Assembly (NCBI GenBank): GCA_000165345.1
Contig: CM000432.1
Location: 1 to 64,000 of the forward strand
Direction: 5' to 3'
Length of the DNA: 64,000 bases
Shown: positions 11,638 to 57,699 of the stretch, piece after piece
How the letters are laid out: the number at the start of each line of letters is the position of its first letter
How positions within the stretch are numbered: the first letter of the stretch is position 1
Program-made: the position numbers and the translations under genes
The notes under the pieces: model-generated
Database searches by the model: none
Told to the model about the DNA's origin: nothing
What the model saw: the letters and a program-made list of their open reading frames with translations, nothing else

Positions 11638-13671
11638 ATGACTGAAAATTTACAAGAAGGTTCCTTGAATTTCGAATTGCCAAAATTTCAAATAGAAGTT
11701 GGGTTTTGGAAGGCTGCTAGTACTCTTAAATACGATGTTATTAAATCCAGTGAGGATTCGTTTGATATACTTGGTTTTTACAATCAAGAAACAAATATTA
11801 TTCGAATTAGACAAGAGTCTTTGAATTCGAAAAATAAAGAGTATTTAGGTAAAGTTTCAAATTAATATTTCTAACTTAATTTTTTTTTAAATTTCATTTT
11901 TTCGAAAAATTTTTTAGAATACAATAATTCCGTGATTGGAAAGTTGAGTTTAGTCAACTCCATGTCAGCTATCATTAATTTTGGTAATATTGATCATGGC
12001 TGTGACTCCTACCTGGAATCTGCAGTTGATAATGCAATGATGTGGATTAATAATAGTTCTAACCATGAAAAATATCCATTTACTTTCAAATTATGCATTT
12101 ATTTTGATTTTAAAACCCAAATAGCTTATTATAGTGCTTTTTTTCCTAATGTAAACACTAATTTCAACATTAAGACTGACAAACAATCTGAGCTGGGAAT
12201 TGAAATTAAATCAAATTTGCCCGAATATTCTGGTTCGTATATAGATTTAAGCAGCATTAATAAAAACTCAAATTCACTAGCAGTTCTTAAAACATTAAAA
12301 GATAGAGTGGAGGGAAAAATTGGCAATTTTAATGATGAAACAAGCATTGAAAAAAAAGAAAGATTTGATTGCCCATGGTTTTTTTCAACATTACTTACCA
12401 TTATACTTTTTAAAGACAAGTATAAGAATTTACTCAAAACCAATGAAATTATAAAGCTTTTGAAAGAATCAGGTTCGAATGGGAATTTTAAATTTGATTC
12501 GAGAAGCTGTTTTATTTCAAATAAGCATGTTAAAAATGTGCTTGCTATTAGCGATAAAGAAATGAAAGAATTACAATCTGAACACATTCTACCATTTGAT
12601 TTGAAAAATTACTTAAGTCCGCATGAACTCCAACAGAGATTGAGCACAATGAATATTGACTTAATTAAGTGGAGGCTAATACCCAATTTCGAACAGATTC
12701 ACTTTAAGAATTTGAAATTCTTGATAGTAGGTAGTGGTACATTAGGTTGTAGTGTTGCTAGAAATCTTATTGGATGGGGCATACGAAATTTTAAATTCAT
12801 TGATCACTCTAAAGTCAGCTTAAACAATCCAATGAGGCAGTGCTTATTTACATTGGAAGATGTCAAAAATAAGAAAAATAAGGCCATAGCTGCGGTTGAG
12901 AGACTACGATATGTTTGCCCAGATATTCATGCAGAAGGAATCGACTTTGAAATTCCAATACTTGGTGATTCAACATTAAGTCTTGAACAGTTTTTGAAGT
13001 CAGTTAATGAAACAAAAGATAACATAATTGATTCTGATGTGGTAATGTTACTTACAGATAACAAAGAATCAAGATGGCTACCTACAGTCCTTATTGGGCT
13101 AATCAACCGCTATTATAATAGAAGGAGGCCAATATTATGCATCACAGTTGGATTAGGATTTGATTCATTTATTGTAGTCAGAAATACATTCACAGAAACG
13201 GATTATTCTAGTTCTGGGTGCTACTTTTGTGGAGATTTTTCAATTAATTCAAAAAATAATACATTAGATATTCCAGTTGATCAACAATGCTCTGTTGTTA
13301 GAATGGGGGCAAGCTACTTTGCATCTTCAATTGCAGTTGAATTAATTATGAATCTATCTCAGCATCCATTGACATGGAATGCTCCTCATTTAAGTAATGA
13401 ATCTAATAAATCTGATGAAAATAAAAGCCTTCTAGGCACAACTCCACAATGTATTAGAGGGTTTTTAGCTGATTTTTCATTCTGTACTGATCCTATTCAG
13501 AGGAATAAATGTTGTATTGCTTGCTCAGACAAACTAATTGATAAAATTCATAAAGATGAAGTTAATACATTAAGCGAAATTTTTATCAACCCTCGAAAGG
13601 TTGAATCAATTTCTGGATTAACCAATTTTAAATCTGAAATGGAGAAATCAATAACAGAAAGTTATATCTAA
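11638..13671 (+). CDS. ATG7: ubiquitin-like modifier-activating enzyme ATG7 (E1-like, ThiF family), 2 exons: join(11638..11848,11918..13671)
   Basis: The Rossmann motif VGSGTLGCSVARNLIGWGIRNFKFIDHSKVSLNNPMRQCLF matches the ATG7 signature LLLGAGTLGC..R.L.GWGV....VD...VS.SNP.RQ. SRWLP, GFDSF, GCYFCGD, LDQQCSVVR and CCIACS are also conserved. The 69-nt intron has donor GT at 11849 and acceptor AG at 11916-11917, and is phase 1. Confidence 0.85.
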
Positions 13672-13730: not shown

Positions 13731-16700
13731 CTATTTATTCTTTCTTTGTGATAGAGATTTTGATTTTTCTTGCCTATTATTTTGTACACTCATATTTTTG
13801 CCATTTCTAGATTGAAATGTAAAGTCTTTCACTTCGGATTCGCCATCAATTATATACTTAGATCCTACCATACTAGTATGATTATATCTCTTCGATGATT
13901 CTATGGAAAGCCCCTCATTATACCATTTCATGAAATTCCTTTCAACTTCTTCAGCCGAAATGATTGAAGTCCCTGCAATCGGAAGAATATCTTCAAACTG
14001 CTTTCGAATCTTAATATATCTTGCATGATCAAATTCGTGATCAAGTCTCCCATCCAAAGGATCCCATCTCGGTGGAAGAATTAACTCATTTAATCTCTTC
14101 ATTTCAAGTAACTCTTTAACATCAGGCCTTACAGGGATATTAAACCCGAATACTTTATCATATATTCCATCATTATTAAATTCTTTAAGTTTCTTATTTC
14201 TTTCTTTTCTAATTTCTTTAGCTACCATTCTTGCATCTATTATTCTTAATCTAAATTCTTCATCATCTGGATATACCATTGGCAATGCATCTGGAAATAG
14301 TAATTTAAAATTTTTACTTTGTACTTTATTCTCTTTTGAATTTGAACATCTAATATCCGAAAGAAATTTAAACAAATCATCTGATGCAGTTTTTAATACT
14401 AAATTAAAAAATAAAATTATAGTTAATTATTTAAATGTATTTTTAAGTCAAACTTACGTGTTGATTCTCCAAATTGTTGAGAAGAAAATATTACCCTAGC
14501 TCCTTTAGCTCTAAATTGGGAATTCTTTACGGCTGATTCAATTCCAAGAATTCTTATTGTATTCATAACACATTTTCTTACTTCTCCCAGTAGCTCAGTT
14601 TCATTTTCAACAGGAATATCAGAACTTGATCTATAACCTTTAATCTTTGGAATTAAGTACCTCAAGGTTTGTCCTTGTGGTTCATAAAAACCAGCTGAAT
14701 AAAGGGTTTTACCGATATCTTTTGCCTCACAATCGAAGATGTTTCCTTGTTCGATTAAATAAAGCATCTGTGCAGCAGCTTCTTCAGGAAAAGGTGATTT
14801 AAGAAGTCCTAGCATGAAATTGGTTTGTTCATTATCACCAAGTTTGTGTTTGTAATAAAGAGACAATCCATCATTAGATTCTTTTGCATCCAAAATCTGC
14901 TCTTTATCGCCATATAATTGTTTATGCTTGTTATATTGATGAATTAAAAAAAATGTATCAACAAATACTTGTTGAATCATAAAAAAAGCTGTTCCAATAT
15001 GAAATGTCATAATTGTAATCTCAATAATAAATTCAAATTTTGGATAATAACTATAAAAGCAAAGTAAACAAGGAATAAATATTAATGTGAAACCGGAAAT
15101 TATTGTATTAATATTTAAACTTGTAGAAAATATCCACCAGGGCTTATCCATTCCATTCTTTTTACTACTATCACTGTCATCAACTGGAGAAATAATACTT
15201 TCAAAGAATACTAGTATGGAGTAAATTGAAAGTACAAAGAGTATTAAATATCTGGCAAACACATAATTCAGATTTAGAACATTAATTATTCCAGAGATAA
15301 TGTAAAATCGAACTGATTCCCAATATAAAACTGAAATTTTATAACCAGAAAAAAGAAAACTGCTACTAATTGTATACAATTGATTTTGTCTGATAATTTT
15401 TTTACGAATTACAATACCAGAAATTATATTTATGAGTGGAAACATTGTACAATAATAAATATATCCAATAAGTGCATCGCTATTAAGTGTTTTACAAGGT
15501 AACAAGTAGCATTGTGATTGGACTGTACCAAAACCTGGAATATTTGTACATGTCATAGAAACTATAATAGACCAAGAAACTGTTGAATAAATAAGTGTCA
15601 AATAGACTTGAGAAGTACAAATAAATCTGTATGTAGACTTTTCCGTTTGATCCTTAAGTATTTTATTAAATTTTTCTAATCTTGCGGATGATTCCATAAC
15701 TTTCATCCTGTTTAACTCGGTTTTTGTATCATTTTCTTTATATATTTTGTTTACATCGATTATATGTTTAATAGTAAACGTAATAAATAAGATTGCAATA
15801 CCAAGAATTGGTACTGAATTAGCAATAAACAAATCTGCATTTGCATCAGTTAAATTTACTTGGCCAACTGATTGCATGATAATTGGAAATAACTTAAAGA
15901 GGCATTTTGACGGAAAAATCCCCAATGGGAGCCATAGATTAGGTGATAGAAGTTTTATTATTTTGAGATAATGGATAAAGAATTCATCCATATTTTGAAA
16001 TTCAGAATCCTTATACTTAACAAATATACCATATGTTGTGCTAATGGAAATGAAAAATAGTAAATTCTTAAATTTAGCAATTACTGCAGAATTTCTTCTA
16101 CTTAGTGCTGTATATTTTATAGATAATTCACTTACTCTTGCAATACCATAAGAAATGAGTAATACTAACATAATCATTCCAATAAAAGCCACCAATAACA
16201 AATATTGATTTGGGCATTCAATACATGATTTATCTAATCCATATTCTAATGGGAAGTAGCCGCTTGTGCATGTATTACATAATGGACCAGTATATCCTTC
16301 TTTACATCCTTTGCATTCTGGTAAGCAAGCTTCTTCATGAGGACATTTTATTACTATACCAACATAATTATCGCTGAACCACCAACCTCCATTTTTAAGT
16401 TTTTCGTTAGTAGTACAATAATTGCTATCAAATTTTCCTGGGCAAACATATTTTTGAGAATTCAAAGGACATGAAATACAACTGTTAGTTGACTCTAATT
16501 TAAAAAATCCTGGAAGGCAAATGCATGAATCTAAACTGTACAAGCCGGTATCTCCATATGTACTGGAATTTATTGGACAGTTTACACAAGAATATAAATT
16601 GGTAGTTAACCCCACAGTATTTTCTGGGCAAGGTGTACATTGATTACCATCAAAGTAGTTGCCCTTTTTGCACGGAGTATCTGATGAATTTATGGCATCA

Positions 16701-16789
16701 ATCAGTCCTGAAAGGAAAATTAAGAATAAAGCCTGACTAATTAATGAAAATCTGGCTTTGAATCCATTATTTTTTTTAATCATTTTCAC
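13731..16789 (-). CDS. Cys-rich multi-pass membrane protein of about 1000 aa: signal peptide, TNFR/ephrin-receptor-like cysteine-rich ectodomain, about 9-10 TM helices and a cytosolic tail. Two exons: join(13731..14398,14458..16789).
   Basis: Minus-strand GTAAGT donor at 14457-14452 and acceptor AG at 14400-14399, giving a 59-nt intron. This fuses ORFs 14423..16789 and 13731..14375 in phase. The first ORF has a hydrophobic N-terminus, Cys-x-x-Cys repeats, then multiple hydrophobic helices. Confidence 0.6.
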
Positions 16790-17603: not shown

Positions 17604-18169
17604 ATGAAATTAAATTTATCATTGTTTTTTTTCTGGTTAATTGGAACTTTTACACTAATATTTTTTCAAACTTCAGAATGTATACAGATTAACAGTATTA
17701 ATTTATCTTCTAATAGAACTATTTCCCACAACCAAAAATTAGAAGAAATTAAAGAACACTTAATAACAAATGCTACAAATAATTCCACAGAAATAAATGA
17801 AGAGGTAAGATTTAAATTCATTAATTTTATTTTTCCAAAATTTCATTTTTTAGGTGCTGGATAATACTATAGAAGAGCTTACTGACCTTTCTAATGAAAT
17901 TGAAATGAAGCTTAAAGAATTAAAGAAAAAAGAATTAATGTAAGTTTGAATCAATAGTCGGTATATTTAGTTAATTTTCTAATTTAATTTCTAATAGAAT
18001 GGATGTTGATAAGAAAAATATTGGCGTATTTGCAAGCATCACAATGATTGCTCTTGTTTTATTATTTTACCTTGGTGTGGCACATATGGAAGACGCATTG
18101 AAAGATGCAAGTATTCTTAATGGTGATATCGTTTCACCTCAAAATGTAATATTTGACCCAAGGTGGTAA
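17604..18169 (+). CDS. hypothetical small membrane protein of about 155 aa with an N-terminal signal/TM segment, a coiled-coil middle and a C-terminal TM. Three exons: join(17604..17804,17854..17939,17998..18169).
   Basis: Donors GTAAGA at 17805 and GTAAGT at 17940. Acceptors ttttttag at 17852-17853 and ctaatag at 17996-17997. The introns are 49 and 58 nt and the phases are consistent (0, 2). The stop lies 21 nt before the stop of the convergent eIF2D gene. Confidence 0.5.
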
Positions 18170-52197: not shown

Positions 52198-55100
52198 ATG
52201 ACAATTTCTAGAAGCAGTTCATCATTAAATGAAGATGGAAAAATCAATCGAAGTAAGATTGTTCCATATATTACAAGAGAGATGAGTATTGCTCAGCTTC
52301 AAGATAAGAAATACCATAGTTTTGTGCAAAATACATTGGCAGATTATCAAGCAAGTGCATTTGATGCTCAGAAAATTGCATTGGAAAAAGATAAAGAGCT
52401 TAAAGAGTTGAGAGATACACAAAATTCAGTTAAGGTTTCGTTAAAGTATTATCAAGAGAAATGCCAGCAGTTAGAAAATGAGCTTAAAGCAACTTCAATG
52501 GGGCTATTATATGGGAGGAAGGAAAAAGAACAAGAGAGAGAAATTGCAAGATTGAGTACTGAAATAACAAGTTTTGAGAAAAAAAAAGAGGAGTTAGAAA
52601 CAAACTTGAGATATTATCAAGATAGAGAAATGTATTTACAGCACGAGTTGGAACTTAAAGAAAATGAATTAAATAAGCTATCTCAAGAATTTGCCACTTT
52701 AACAGAGACATATAATAGTACATATTCGGAATTAGAGAAATGTAAATTTGACTTAAGTACGGAACAGAATAATAATAAAACATTAGAAAATCAATTAAAA
52801 GTAAAGAATGACGAGATTACAAAATATAAAGGAAGTTTAACAACTAAAGAAGCGGAAATTAATAATTTGAAGAATGAAATACAAAAATTGAACTCAATGG
52901 TTGAAATCAATAAATCTGAAATAAATACTATTAGTGAGCAGCTTAAATTAAAACAGAAAGAGTGCTTAGATTATAGTAGTAAGATTCAACAAATAGAATT
53001 GGATATGAGAAAAAACTTGGATGAAAACGAAGTATTAATTAAGGATTTAAATTCACAGATAACTTTGACTAGAAATGACTTGACTCAAAAGGTTGAATTA
53101 ATTAATGAGTTAAACTCTCGAATTTCTACATTAGATTTAAAGCTACAAGAATCGTCAAGAGATATATTGGAAAAAGAAAAAACTATAGGAAAGCTTAAAG
53201 CTGAACAGCAGATTACTAGTTTAGAGGCTGATGGTCTTAAAACGAAGATTCAGATTATTGAACAAGAGAAAACCAATATTGAACAAGAAATTGAAACGAT
53301 ATTGGTAGAAAAGAAAAAAATAGATGAAGAACTTAAAGATACAATTAATAGGAAGAATTCCAAGTTAGATGAAGCTTTAACTTACAGAATTGAATCAGCT
53401 ATAACTGCTGAGAGAGAAATTAATCAACTTAAAGAAAAGAACCAAATAATTGAATTTGAGAAAAAAATGATGGAGGAAAAATTGGAAATTTCTAATAATA
53501 ATATAAAAATAAAAGATGATGAAATTCAACAACTTAAAACTACAATCCAAGATCTTAATCGACAAAATATTAAACTTGAGAATGAGCTTCATTCATTACA
53601 AGAAAGTAGCAGAAGAGAAAGTGTGGAGAATACATTTAGAAGTAGTAGAATTGGCTCAAATATTGTAAGTAGTAAAATCAATGCATCATCTGGGTCTACA
53701 GTTAATACCAGTGAAAATACAATTTCTAGTAATATAGCAACTAGTAATGCTGAAACTGTTGAAAAAGTAGTTAATGCTGATACTTTAGTTGACACATCTA
53801 TTCAAGATTCAGCTGTAAATGCTGCTTCTACAACAGTTAAAATGCCATCATCCAAATCAATTTCAAGTAAAAGTGCAATTTCCTCATTGCCAAAGCCAAA
53901 AGCTAAAAGTGCAGTTAAATCAGCTCCTGCTACTGAAGAGAATAACGGTGATCAAACAATATCTGAACCTGCATCTATATCTGAAGTTAAATCTAAAGCT
54001 GGAAGTAAATCAATGCCAGTTTCAAAATCCAAATCTGTAATTAAAGCTAAATCTCAGGTTGTTGCTAAATCCGATATGGATTCTGGACAAATTGTAAAGG
54101 AAGACAATGAGACCAAGGACAATGAGGATGAAGCGGCCAAGGTTAGAGCTCAGAAAGAAAAGGAGGAAGCAGAAGCAAAAGCTTTAAAAGAGAAGGAAGA
54201 AGCTGAGGCCAAAGCCAAGAAAGAAAAAGAAGAGGCTGAGGCTAAAGCTTTAAAGGAGAAAGAAGAAGCTGAGGCCAAAGCTAAGAAAGAAAAGGAGAAG
54301 GAAGAAGCTGAGGCCAAAGCTAAGAAAGAAAAAGAGGAAGCTGAGGCCAAGGCTAAGAAGGAAAAGGAAGAAGCTGAGGCCAAAGCTTTAAAAGAGAAAG
54401 AAGAAGCTGAGGCTAAAGCCAAGAAAGAAAAGGAGAAGGAAGAAGCTGAGGCCAAGGCAAAGAAAGAAAAAGAGGAGGCTGAGGCTAAAGCTAAAAAGGA
54501 GAAGGAGGAGGCTGAGGCAAAGGCCAAGAAGGAGAAGGAGGAAGCTGAAGCCAAAGCTAAGAAAGAGAAGGAGGAAGCTGAGGCCAAAGCTAAGAAAGAA
54601 AAAGAGGAAGCTGAGGCCAAGGCTAAGAAGGAGAAGGAGGAAGCTGAGGCCAAGGCTAAAAAGGAGAAGGAAGAGGCTGAGGCTAAAGCCAAGAAAGAAA
54701 AGGAGGAGGCTGAGGCTGAGGCTGAGGCAAAGGCAAAGAAAGAAAAGGAGGAGGCTGAGGCAAAGGCCAAGAAGGAGAAGGAAGAAGCTGAGGCCAAAGC
54801 TAAGAAAGAGAAGGAGGAAGCTGAGGCCAAAGCTAAGAAAGAAAAAGAGGAAGCTGAGGCCAAGGCTAAAAAGGAAAAAGAGGAGGCTGAGGCTAAAGCC
54901 AAGAAAGAAAAAGAAGAGGCTGAGGCTAAAGCTAAGAAGGAGAAGGAGGAAGCTGAGGCCAAGGCTAAAAAGGAGAAGGAAGAGGCTGATACAAAAGAGA
55001 AAGAGAAGACAGAAATCAAAGAAAATTCAAAAATAGATTCAGATAGTGAGGAAAACTCTGAATCTAAAGAAAAGAAGTCAACTGGACTACTTGCTAAGAC

Positions 55101-57699
55101 AATAGCAAAAGCTAAGGCAAAATCAAAGTCTAATTCTGTCTTATCAAAGCTTCCTTCTAAAGTTAATAAAGAAACAAGCAAAGCTGAGAATGATTTAGAA
55201 AATGAGATAGAAAAAGATGATGAATCAAATAAAAAAGAAACTAAAAAGGAGGAAGATTCAATAGCAAAGCTTAAAGCAAAAGTACCTGTTAAGCCAAGTC
55301 CTTTATTGAAATCAAAGAGTGAAAAAGAAAAGGAGAAAGAAGAAGATAAAGATGAGGAGAAGAAAGAAAAGGACAAAGAGAAAAAGGAAAAGTTAAAAGA
55401 AAAAGAAGAGGAAGGTAAGGAGAAAAGTAATGAAAAGGATAAAGGAGAAGATAAGGATGAAAAGGATAAATCAAAAAGTAAAATAAAAGACTCTCAGAAA
55501 GAGGAAAAATTAGAAGAAACGGAGAAAAATTCATTAAAGAAAGAGTCCAAAGATGATGAGAAGAAAGAAAAGGAGGATCCAATAGCGAAACTTAAGGCGA
55601 AAGTACCTGTTAAGCCAAGTCCTTTATTGAAATCAAAGAGTGAAAAAGAAAAGGAGAAAGAAGATAAAGATGAGGAGAAGAAAGAAAAGGAGGACAAAGA
55701 GAAAAAGGAAAAGTTAAAAGAAAAAGGAGAGGAAGGCAAGGAAAAGGAGGAAGGTAAAGAAAAGGAGAAAGAGAAAGAAAAGGATGAAAAGGATAAATCA
55801 AAAAGTAAAACAAAAGATTTTGAGAAAGAAAAATTAAAGGAAACTGAAAAGGGCGAAAAAGAAGCCGAAAAAGATTCATCAAAGAAAGAGTCCAAAGATG
55901 AGGAGAAGAAAGAAAAGGAGGATCCAATAGCAAAACTTAAGGCAAAGGTACCTGTTAAGCCAAGTCCTTTATTGAAATCAAAGAGTGAAAAAGAAAAGGA
56001 GAAAGAAGAAGATAAAGATGAGGAGAAGAAAGAAAAGGAGGACAAAGAGAAAAAAGAAAAGTTAAAAGAAAAAGAAGAGGAAGGTAAAGAAAAAGAGAAA
56101 GAAAAGGTCAAAGCTCAAAAGAAAAAAGATGAAAAGGAAGAAAAAGATAAGGACGAAAAAGAAGATGATAAAGAAAAGAGTAAAGAAAGTGAAAATCTTG
56201 AAAAAAAACCAACTATTTCAGAAAAAGTTATAAACCCTGAAGGTAAAATTGATGAGAAGGACTCAGAAAAAGAAACTTTAAATCATAGTAAAACTAAGGA
56301 AATTGCTAAAACAAAGGCTGCAGCTCAACTTAAGGCAGCTATATTAGCAAGAGCATCATCTAAAAAGAATATATCAGCTGATAATAGTGAAGATTCAAAG
56401 TTAAAGAAATCTGAATCTAAGAAAGATATTATCAAAGATGAAGCCAAAGATGAAAGTAAGACAAATAAAGATGGAAAGGATCTCAAAAAAACTTTGAAAG
56501 AAGGTGAGGGTTCAATTTCAAAGGTTAAAGGAAAAGGTAAGGTAAAGACTAAGGCAAAGGCAAAAGAAGCCCCACCTCCAGCTGAAGAATCAAGTTGGTT
56601 CAGTGGTTGGTTTGGAACTTCAGCACCGGAAGAACCTCCCAAAGAAGAGGAGAAAAAAGAAGAGAAAAAAGAGGATGAAACGCCGCCACCACCACCACCA
56701 GCTGAGGAGTCAAGTTGGTTCAGTGGTTGGTTTGGAACCTCAGCACCTGAAGAACCACCTAAGGAGGATCCAGCGAAAAAACCTCCTAAAAAGCATTTAG
56801 TTAAGAAATCATCTTCTGTGAAGAAAGATGATGGCGAAAAGAAAGAAGAAAAGGAGGAAAAGAAGGAGGTGAAGAAAGACGAAAAAGAGGAGAAGAAAGA
56901 TGAAAAAGAGGATAAGAAAGACGAAAAGAAGGAAGGAATAGAGGAGACAAAAGAGAAGAAAGAGGAGAAGAAGGAAGGTGACGAAAAGAAGGATGAAACA
57001 GATAATAAGGAGGTAAAGGAAATTGCTGAAAAGGAAAAAACAGGGGTAGACCCAGAGAAAAAAGCTGTCAAAGCAAAGACAAAATCTAAAGCAAAGGCTA
57101 AAGCTAAGGAAGAGCCACCTCCTGCACCACCAGCAGAAGAATCAAGTTGGTTCAGTGGTTGGTTTGGAGCTTCAGCACCGGAAGAACCTCCTAAAGAAGA
57201 GGAGAAAAAAGAAGAGAAAAAAGAGGATGCACCACCAGCTGAAGAGTCGAGCTGGTTCGGCGGTTGGTTTGGAGCCTCCACACCTGAAGAGCCACCTAAG
57301 GAAGATCCAGCAAAAAGACCTACTCCAAAAGTACATCCGGCAAAAAAATCATCCTCCGTGAAGAAGGATAATGATGAAAAGAAAGAAGAAAAGGAGGAAA
57401 AGAAGGAGGAGAAAAAAGAGGAAAAGAAGGAGGAGAAGAAAGAGGAAAAGGAGGAAAAGAAAGAGGACGATGAAAAAGAAAAAAAAGTAGTAAAAGCTAA
57501 AACAAAAACAAAAGCAAAAGCAAAAGCCAAGGCTAAGGAAGAGCCACCTCCTGCACCACCAGCAGAAGAGTCAAGCTGGTTCAGTGGCTGGTTTGGAGCT
57601 GCTGCACCCGCAGAGCCCGAGCCAGAACCAAATAAAGAAGAGCCAAAGGAGGAACAAAAAACTGAGGAACCTGCTGCAACATCCTGGTGGGGATGGTAA
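52198..57699 (+). CDS. giant coiled-coil / low-complexity protein of 1833 aa. The N-terminal 500 aa is heptad coiled-coil. The rest is Lys/Glu-rich with three distinct tandem-repeat arrays and a Trp-rich C-terminus (TSWWGW).
   Basis: Single uninterrupted ORF. All antisense ORFs (54150..55376, 55494..56111, 56325..57530 and others) are repeat shadows. Confidence 0.75.
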   Translation: MTISRSSSSLNEDGKINRSKIVPYITREMSIAQLQDKKYHSFVQNTLADYQASAFDAQKIALEKDKELKELRDTQNSVKVSLKYYQEKCQQLENELKATSMGLLYGRKEKEQEREIARLSTEITSFEKKKEELETNLRYYQDREMYLQHELELKENELNKLSQEFATLTETYNSTYSELEKCKFDLSTEQNNNKTLENQLKVKNDEITKYKGSLTTKEAEINNLKNEIQKLNSMVEINKSEINTISEQLKLKQKECLDYSSKIQQIELDMRKNLDENEVLIKDLNSQITLTRNDLTQKVELINELNSRISTLDLKLQESSRDILEKEKTIGKLKAEQQITSLEADGLKTKIQIIEQEKTNIEQEIETILVEKKKIDEELKDTINRKNSKLDEALTYRIESAITAEREINQLKEKNQIIEFEKKMMEEKLEISNNNIKIKDDEIQQLKTTIQDLNRQNIKLENELHSLQESSRRESVENTFRSSRIGSNIVSSKINASSGSTVNTSENTISSNIATSNAETVEKVVNADTLVDTSIQDSAVNAASTTVKMPSSKSISSKSAISSLPKPKAKSAVKSAPATEENNGDQTISEPASISEVKSKAGSKSMPVSKSKSVIKAKSQVVAKSDMDSGQIVKEDNETKDNEDEAAKVRAQKEKEEAEAKALKEKEEAEAKAKKEKEEAEAKALKEKEEAEAKAKKEKEKEEAEAKAKKEKEEAEAKAKKEKEEAEAKALKEKEEAEAKAKKEKEKEEAEAKAKKEKEEAEAKAKKEKEEAEAKAKKEKEEAEAKAKKEKEEAEAKAKKEKEEAEAKAKKEKEEAEAKAKKEKEEAEAKAKKEKEEAEAEAEAKAKKEKEEAEAKAKKEKEEAEAKAKKEKEEAEAKAKKEKEEAEAKAKKEKEEAEAKAKKEKEEAEAKAKKEKEEAEAKAKKEKEEADTKEKEKTEIKENSKIDSDSEENSESKEKKSTGLLAKTIAKAKAKSKSNSVLSKLPSKVNKETSKAENDLENEIEKDDESNKKETKKEEDSIAKLKAKVPVKPSPLLKSKSEKEKEKEEDKDEEKKEKDKEKKEKLKEKEEEGKEKSNEKDKGEDKDEKDKSKSKIKDSQKEEKLEETEKNSLKKESKDDEKKEKEDPIAKLKAKVPVKPSPLLKSKSEKEKEKEDKDEEKKEKEDKEKKEKLKEKGEEGKEKEEGKEKEKEKEKDEKDKSKSKTKDFEKEKLKETEKGEKEAEKDSSKKESKDEEKKEKEDPIAKLKAKVPVKPSPLLKSKSEKEKEKEEDKDEEKKEKEDKEKKEKLKEKEEEGKEKEKEKVKAQKKKDEKEEKDKDEKEDDKEKSKESENLEKKPTISEKVINPEGKIDEKDSEKETLNHSKTKEIAKTKAAAQLKAAILARASSKKNISADNSEDSKLKKSESKKDIIKDEAKDESKTNKDGKDLKKTLKEGEGSISKVKGKGKVKTKAKAKEAPPPAEESSWFSGWFGTSAPEEPPKEEEKKEEKKEDETPPPPPPAEESSWFSGWFGTSAPEEPPKEDPAKKPPKKHLVKKSSSVKKDDGEKKEEKEEKKEVKKDEKEEKKDEKEDKKDEKKEGIEETKEKKEEKKEGDEKKDETDNKEVKEIAEKEKTGVDPEKKAVKAKTKSKAKAKAKEEPPPAPPAEESSWFSGWFGASAPEEPPKEEEKKEEKKEDAPPAEESSWFGGWFGASTPEEPPKEDPAKRPTPKVHPAKKSSSVKKDNDEKKEEKEEKKEEKKEEKKEEKKEEKEEKKEDDEKEKKVVKAKTKTKAKAKAKAKEEPPPAPPAEESSWFSGWFGAAAPAEPEPEPNKEEPKEEQKTEEPAATSWWGW
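54150..54990 (+). repeat. about 29 tandem copies of a 39-bp unit encoding KEKEEAEAKAKKE (with KAL/KAK alternation) inside CDS 52198..57699
   Basis: Read directly from the sequence. There is synonymous wobble variation between units (gaa/gag, aaa/aag, gct/gcc), so this is not a sequencing artefact. Confidence 0.9.
55255..56100 (+). repeat. three tandem copies of a 320-345-bp unit (about 110 aa, starting DSIAKLKAKVPVKPSPLLKSKSEKEKEKEEDKDEEKKEK) inside CDS 52198..57699
   Basis: Units begin near 55261, 55581 and 55925 with more than 90% identity. Confidence 0.85.
56570..57620 (+). repeat. five dispersed copies of an aromatic motif module PPAEESSWFSGWFG(A/T)SAPEEPPKE(E/D), separated by KE-rich spacers. 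Four copies form two pairs and the fifth stands alone.
   Basis: Copies begin near 56575, 56695, 57130, 57235 and 57550. Confidence 0.85.

Follow-up and report, generated by a model that had tools for sequence, protein, structure and literature searches.

CPATCC_001478 of Cryptosporidium parvum, a two-exon gene for a short CRMP-family protein with a putative contact-sensing role

The 64,000-nt stretch of contig CM000432.1 (GenBank assembly GCA_000165345.1, positions 1 to 64,000), hereafter the window, is an AT-rich Cryptosporidium parvum sequence (~28% G+C over its whole length), and its proteins match this species. On its minus strand, at 13731..16783, lies CPATCC_001478, which is best explained overall as a two-exon gene of the cysteine repeat modular protein (CRMP) family, encoding a short member of a third clade of this family with a putative contact-sensing role (probability of this combined reading roughly 0.7). 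The part of this reading that concerns the gene model and the family assignment, namely that CPATCC_001478 is a real two-exon gene and a CRMP family member, is in our assessment nearly certain. The gene, its spliced model and its CRMP assignment are all public already; what appears to be new here, as judged from sequence comparison, is its placement in a separate clade and its unclassified cytosolic domain.

A single gene interrupted by a conserved intron

A program-made list of open reading frames (ORFs) contains two minus-strand ORFs in this region, 14423..16789 (788 aa) and 13731..14375 (214 aa). As the original prediction had proposed, they make up one gene after splicing, with the following parts:

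14458..16783, minus strand: exon 1, 2326 nt, ending in phase 1; codons 1-775 and the first base of codon 776
14399..14457, minus strand: intron, 59 nt, GTAAGT...TTTAG, phase 1; left unspliced, it runs into an in-frame TAA
13731..14398, minus strand: exon 2, 668 nt including the stop codon (13731-13733); residues 776-997

The 59-nt intron anticipated between 14458 and 14398 was borne out by the junction itself, GAA TCA ACA C / GTAAGT...TTTAG / TA TTA AAA, in which a T-rich stretch precedes the TTTAG acceptor at 14399. Joining 14458 to 14398 exactly restores the frame of the downstream ORF, the split codon C/TA encoding Leu. With the true start at the ATG at 16783, not at the GTG at 16789, the spliced product has 997 residues and is identical, residue for residue, to QOY41892.1/WRK32136.1 from the C. 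parvum locus CPATCC_001478. Exon 2 supplies 222 codons, in agreement with the expectation that the last ~220 residues come from a downstream exon.

In genomic DNA of C. serpentis and C. ryanae, an intron was found at the same codon and in the same phase (67 and 69 nt, respectively), with the GTAAGT...TTTAG ends kept while length and sequence vary. Full-length orthologues of 985-997 aa are present in eight other Cryptosporidium species or genotypes, among them C. meleagridis, C. hominis, chipmunk genotype I, C. felis, C. ryanae and C. serpentis, and among the Cryptosporidium orthologues exon 2 is as conserved as exon 1. Furthermore, two motifs encoded by exon 2, FxLIFPxA and DPLDxRL, lie downstream of two encoded by exon 1, SPFPEEAxAQ and ExQGQTL..P, in single proteins of Besnoitia, Neospora, Lankesteria and Vitrella. 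We accepted the splice because of the exact match to the deposited model, the conserved position and phase of the intron and the collinear exon-2 motifs.

The region could instead hold two separate unspliced genes, one encoding a membrane protein of 788 aa that stops at the TAA at 14423 and the other a cytosolic protein of 214 aa at 14375..13731, as the two listed ORFs, several deposited models of 786-789 aa and the separate 214-aa product of prokaryote-style gene calls would suggest. However, the second ORF has no ATG near its start, its first Met lying ~33 codons in. Moreover, the intron is canonical and restores the frame exactly, its position and phase are conserved while its length and sequence are not, both halves are collinear in single proteins of the four genera named above, and C. 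parvum is currently annotated with the 997-aa model. Two independent genes are thus effectively excluded by the in-frame conserved intron, the collinear homologues and the 997-aa annotation.

The automated 786-789-aa and 214-aa models are unspliced halves of CPATCC_001478, and the older 786-789-aa models (e.g. EAK87736.1/XP_625616.1) are exon 1 read through into the intron. The deposited models are inconsistent in other species as well: intron read-through adds 22 residues (RKFKNKTKIITLTINYHVPNIV) to that of C. canis (P0004), the C. ubiquitum model (P0003) omits 26 conserved residues after the junction, and the C. bovis model (P0010) and several C. parvum and C. hominis entries (P0012/P0018-P0020) end at 786-789 aa and do not include exon 2.

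CRMP core homology and predicted architecture of the protein

Two putative CRMPs were stated for Cryptosporidia by Singer et al. 2023 (PMC9815656), and the supplementary sequence sets of that study list CPATCC_001478/XP_625616.1, with the same sequence start as the 997-aa product, together with CPATCC_000266. A search of main-text literature with the gene accessions and with NCLIV_022290 and BESB_066500 returned no mention, only the supplementary files of PMC9815656 carrying the gene. A guessed identifier, cgd4_2420, was discarded, as it retrieved only papers on CpARO and RON9/RON10.

The limits of the family were set here by the 'conserved core' that Singer et al. 2023 defined, which consists of two EGF-like/ephrin-receptor-like modules and the transmembrane (TM) domain, with core sequences taken from the supplement of PMC9815656. 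When an 8-sequence profile of the gene's family was compared by hhalign with a 12-sequence profile of CRMPA/B cores, the two were aligned over 480 columns with a probability of 99.94% and an E-value of 3.1e-37. In this alignment, residues 49-572 are paired with core positions 1-546, a span that takes in the Cys-rich modules and the greater part of the membrane domain, and the signature SFLFSGYKISVLYWES after TM5 corresponds to KYGFLHNGFVKKYWYWE in TgCRMPa. Nine TM helices have been reported for the Toxoplasma and Plasmodium CRMPs (PMC9815656), equal to the number of hydropathy peaks of the C. parvum protein. By profile comparison, the predicted nine-helix core shares homology with the conserved core of CRMPA/CRMPB in apicomplexans. 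The assignment to the CRMP family thus has the support of a profile-profile test in addition to that of citation. The protein is divided as follows:

16691..16783, minus strand: signal-peptide-like N-terminus, residues 1 to ~31, with a hydrophobic core at 12-30 (hydropathy)
16211..16672, minus strand: Cys-rich ectodomain, residues 38-191, 19 Cys; a putative ephrin-receptor-like module, then a putative EGF-like/DUF7630 module
14948..16204, minus strand: nine-helix membrane core, residues 194-612, with the SFLFSGYKISVLYWES motif at residues 474-489
13734..14947, minus strand: cytosolic C-terminal region, residues 613-997, ~385 aa, interrupted by the intron
14501..14863, minus strand: helical subdomain within the cytosolic region, residues ~641-761, confidently modelled

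In its main features, the architecture in the original prediction was recovered. The signal peptide is matched by the hydrophobic N-terminal segment at residues 12-30. The ectodomain is indeed Cys-rich, with 19 Cys in residues 38-190 (153 aa, 12%) versus 11 in the other 807 residues, and 18 of the 19 Cys are invariant in an alignment of nine sequences that ranges from Cryptosporidium to Vitrella. The description of this ectodomain as ephrin-receptor-like holds for the clade: the homologues in Besnoitia, Neospora, Lankesteria and Vitrella pass Pfam Ephrin_rec_like (PF07699) with 25.4-36.1 bits against a cut-off of 23.1, whereas the C. parvum protein itself is sub-threshold (E 0.63). Similarly, the Besnoitia homologue passes DUF7630 (PF24633; 27.4 bits vs 27), for which residues 145-190 of the C. 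parvum protein stay under the cut-off (24.6 bits vs 27, E 2.8e-5). A PDB sequence search with the ectodomain gave no significant match.

Of the 9-10 helices foreseen, nine appear as peaks in family-averaged hydropathy, giving predicted TM segments at residues 196-214, 234-252, 318-336, 393-411, 441-459, 485-503, 513-531, 558-576 and 585-603. An odd number of helices after a signal peptide leads to a predicted N-out/C-in topology, and the CPATCC_001478 product is predicted to be a type-I-oriented multipass membrane protein. The hydrophilic C-terminal region that had been put at ~330 aa is present, its length really being ~385 aa (613-997). It lies outside the homology to the CRMPA/B core detected by hhalign, carries the motifs SPFPEEAxAQ, ExQGQTL..P, FxLIFPxA and DPLDxRL, which are common only to clade members, and includes an extension of ~110 aa found in Cryptosporidium only. 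No sequence match to this region was found in Pfam or the PDB. The tail is conserved and mostly helical, and no known fold could be detected in it.

As to the type of protein, a sensor or a transporter-coupled receptor had been suggested, of which the sensor or receptor part fits the published CRMP hypothesis (PMC9670195) and nothing supports a transporter role. The alternative that the protein is no signalling receptor but a membrane transporter or channel, regulated through an extracellular domain, is very unlikely: the protein matches no Pfam transporter family, a PDB search with the TM + tail profile gave nothing significant (best E 1, to helices of G-protein-coupled receptors, GPCRs), and the CRMP literature examined describes no transport activity for any CRMP. 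The transporter assignment was rejected on these grounds. A 7TM GPCR was likewise rejected, given the nine predicted helices, the lack of a Pfam 7tm match at E <= 1 and a PDB GPCR match of only E ~1 over 65 residues. Adhesion GPCRs, with which CRMPs have been compared (PMC9670195), also combine a large adhesive or Cys-rich ectodomain with a polytopic membrane domain and a cytosolic tail; different from them, the C. parvum protein has nine predicted helices instead of seven, and a Pfam scan of it gave no match to a 7TM or GAIN family.

Evidence for a third, short CRMP-like clade

The relatives of the gene were sought with a HMMER profile of the Cryptosporidium TM + tail region in an exhaustive search of 1.84 billion representative proteins. 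Only five distant relatives were found, four of which can be named: BESB_066500 of Besnoitia besnoiti, NCLIV/BN1204_022290 of Neospora caninum, the transcript DN2893 of the gregarine Lankesteria and CEM35911.1 of the chromerid Vitrella. Clade members from Plasmodium and piroplasms were not found in the same search, which is suggestive of the absence of the third clade from these groups. When family alignments were used for word-indexed homologue searches, the only matches were Cryptosporidium orthologues or unrelated proteins with ephrin repeats.

In phmmer searches from the C. parvum protein (E-values for a database size nominally set to 1e6), the proteins of Besnoitia, Neospora, Lankesteria and Vitrella scored 5e-38, 6e-35, 5e-24 and 2e-20, respectively, versus 2e-3 for the best of the CRMPA/B cores. 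Besnoitia also has CRMPA and CRMPB (BESB_084890 and BESB_019000), as does Neospora (NCLIV_026200 and NCLIV_012890), and the short protein is therefore a third paralogue in both. A neighbour-joining (NJ) tree was built from 534 trimmed columns and bootstrapped 100 times. In it, the sequences of Cryptosporidium, Besnoitia, Neospora, Lankesteria and Vitrella form a clade with 83% support, separate from CRMPA (99-100%) and CRMPB (100%). The four named relatives share with the C. parvum protein its end-to-end architecture, the 18 invariant Cys, the TM pattern and the cytosolic motifs and, on this sequence evidence, are likely orthologues. They differ from it in identity (~20-22%) and in lacking the C-terminal extension of ~110 aa and an insertion at 345-380 (between TM3 and TM4) of the Cryptosporidium protein. 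By its motifs, the short clade is defined by a cytosolic domain of its own.

Compared with T. gondii CRMPa (TGGT1_261080) and CRMPb (TGGT1_292020) and Plasmodium CRMP1-4, the C. parvum protein likewise has a signal peptide or predicted N-out orientation, Cys modules of putative ephrin-receptor-like/EGF-like type immediately ahead of the membrane, and a predicted core of 9 TM helices with a GFLxxGY....WYWE-type motif followed by a P(F/V)D motif. Different from these proteins, it is far smaller (997 aa), has no Kringle, MAR, lectin or long repeat regions, and carries a tail that differs from the CRMPA/B tails and is conserved inside its own clade; its pairwise similarity to CRMPA/B is only marginal.

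These comparisons bear on a rival reading, in which the gene is the orthologue or functional equivalent of CRMPA or CRMPB and forms with CPATCC_000266 the sole Cryptosporidium CRMP heterodimer, triggering the one rhoptry of the sporozoite. The strong core homology in hhalign is consistent with it, as are three points of PMC9815656: in Cryptosporidia, no more than two CRMP-like genes were found by Singer et al., who argued that one A-clade and one B-clade copy are retained in most apicomplexans and that A and B cores heterodimerise in AlphaFold models. However, the best matches of the gene are a third coccidian gene and not CRMPA or CRMPB of the same genomes, its NJ clade stands apart from both, the clade has a cytosolic tail of its own, and CPATCC_000266 itself is not clearly A or B by phmmer. 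We consider this reading unlikely, although the protein may be a heterodimer partner even if it is not a CRMPA/B orthologue. The same results suggest that CPATCC_001478 probably belongs to a third, short CRMP-like clade and is not a one-to-one orthologue of CRMPA or CRMPB. This placement has seemingly not been stated before, because the coccidian members of the short clade are absent from the published CRMP analysis.

Beyond the Apicomplexa and Vitrella, ephrin-receptor-like Cys repeats followed by a multi-TM region also occur in the CRMP outgroups Tetrahymena CRMP1/2, Paramecium XP_001426280 and Dictyostelium Q86I19, and in the metagenomic proteins P0034 and P0038. The Paramecium, Dictyostelium and two metagenomic sequences carry (F/Y)L..(G)Y....(Y/W)(W/Y)E, a relationship of short motif-level matches only. 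The domain architecture of the Tetrahymena CRMPs has been described, with 5 TM helices reported (PMC9670195). These ciliate, amoebozoan and metagenomic relatives differ in the numbers of repeats and helices, and none has the clade-specific tail. P0034 (1805 aa) and P0038 (1646 aa) have 11 Ephrin_rec_like repeats and then a membrane region with a CRMP-like FLFxGYR....WYYEF, which hints at a much wider eukaryotic superfamily of ephrin-repeat multi-TM proteins.

Proposed function, genomic neighbourhood and significance

In T. gondii, CRMPa and CRMPb associate with MIC15 and TSP1 in a complex that is needed for rhoptry discharge and invasion, gather transiently at the apical tip by the rhoptry secretory apparatus, and have an extracellular N-terminus and a cytosolic C-terminus (PMC9670195, PMC9815656). 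According to a published hypothesis, CRMPs act as contact sensors that resemble adhesion GPCRs and serve rhoptry exocytosis (PMC9670195). By analogy with TgCRMPa/b, the C. parvum protein would sense contact through an ectodomain that faces outward at the zoite surface or apical membrane, its 9-TM core might pair with a second CRMP-type subunit, e.g. CPATCC_000266, and its clade-specific cytosolic domain might pass the signal on to the machinery behind rhoptry secretion. A surface or apical location with N-out orientation is the most likely one, because the ectodomain and core are homologous to those of CRMPs. A rhoptry-trigger role for this paralogue, by the same analogy, is conceivable and in our view somewhat doubtful.

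Several points weigh against the combined reading. The Toxoplasma CRMP pull-downs list CRMPa, CRMPb, MIC15 and TSP1 and no third CRMP-like protein (PMC9670195, PMC9815656), and the Kringle, lectin and MAR modules present in the large CRMPs are missing from the C. parvum protein. The number of TM segments comes from hydropathy alone, a full-length AlphaFold2 model built with 10 Cryptosporidium sequences was poor (mean predicted local distance difference test score, pLDDT, 43.8), and the cytosolic domain gave no informative fold match. In addition, the NJ tree is a simple one on a hard alignment, with unsupported deep nodes (9-35%). Since no third CRMP-like protein is among those in the Toxoplasma pull-downs, the short clade may act elsewhere, and its coexistence with CRMPA/B makes a different role possible.

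An extension of the third-clade placement, which we offer tentatively and at slightly less than even odds, is that the clade is an unrecognised ancient third CRMP branch, a 'minimal CRMP' whose conserved helical cytosolic domain, of no known fold, would be a new signalling or adaptor module, and that this branch may act apart from the CRMPA/B rhoptry-discharge complex. The branch would then predate parasitism, because it is present in a free-living chromerid, and Cryptosporidium would have at most one classical CRMP.

Around the gene, an ATG7-like E1 enzyme gene (11932..13671, plus strand) converges on its 3' end with ~60 nt between the stop codons; ThiF and ATG7_N are the domains of the ATG7-like gene in orthologous loci. 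The order eIF2D, small ORF, CRMP-like gene and ATG7 is kept in C. serpentis, C. ryanae and C. felis. Upstream of the gene, an 86-aa ORF (17604..17864, plus strand) with a signal-peptide-like start (MKLNLSLFFFWLIGTFTLIFFQTSEC) and several N-x-S/T sites may have arisen by chance or represent the first exon of a gene for a secreted protein. Elsewhere in the window, an 1833-aa ORF (52198..57699, plus strand) lies in a strongly purine-skewed region (G+C 0.37-0.39, GC skew <=0.47, AT skew <=0.62) and contains repeats at 54147..54989 and 55250..56195. These are a 33-nt tandem repeat x24.8 and repeats of 321/345 nt, suggesting a repetitive protein with many charged residues. Two long ORFs on the opposite strand, at 54150..55376 and 56325..57530, seem to be shadow ORFs of these repeats.

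Few surface-exposed factors are known to be required for rhoptry discharge, by which an apicomplexan becomes committed to invasion, and CRMPs belong to them; the Cryptosporidium sporozoite has a single rhoptry and few validated invasion factors. To our knowledge CRMPs are conserved and have no host counterpart, and they are therefore of interest as intervention targets. The design of tagging and knockout experiments hinges on which CRMP-type proteins exist and on correct full-length models, and several of the models deposited for this gene are missing their final 222 residues, contain intron read-through or skip coding sequence. The third-clade refinement leaves the basic picture of CRMPs unchanged; a separate short clade with its own cytosolic domain would suggest a tractable minimal CRMP member for structural and functional work.

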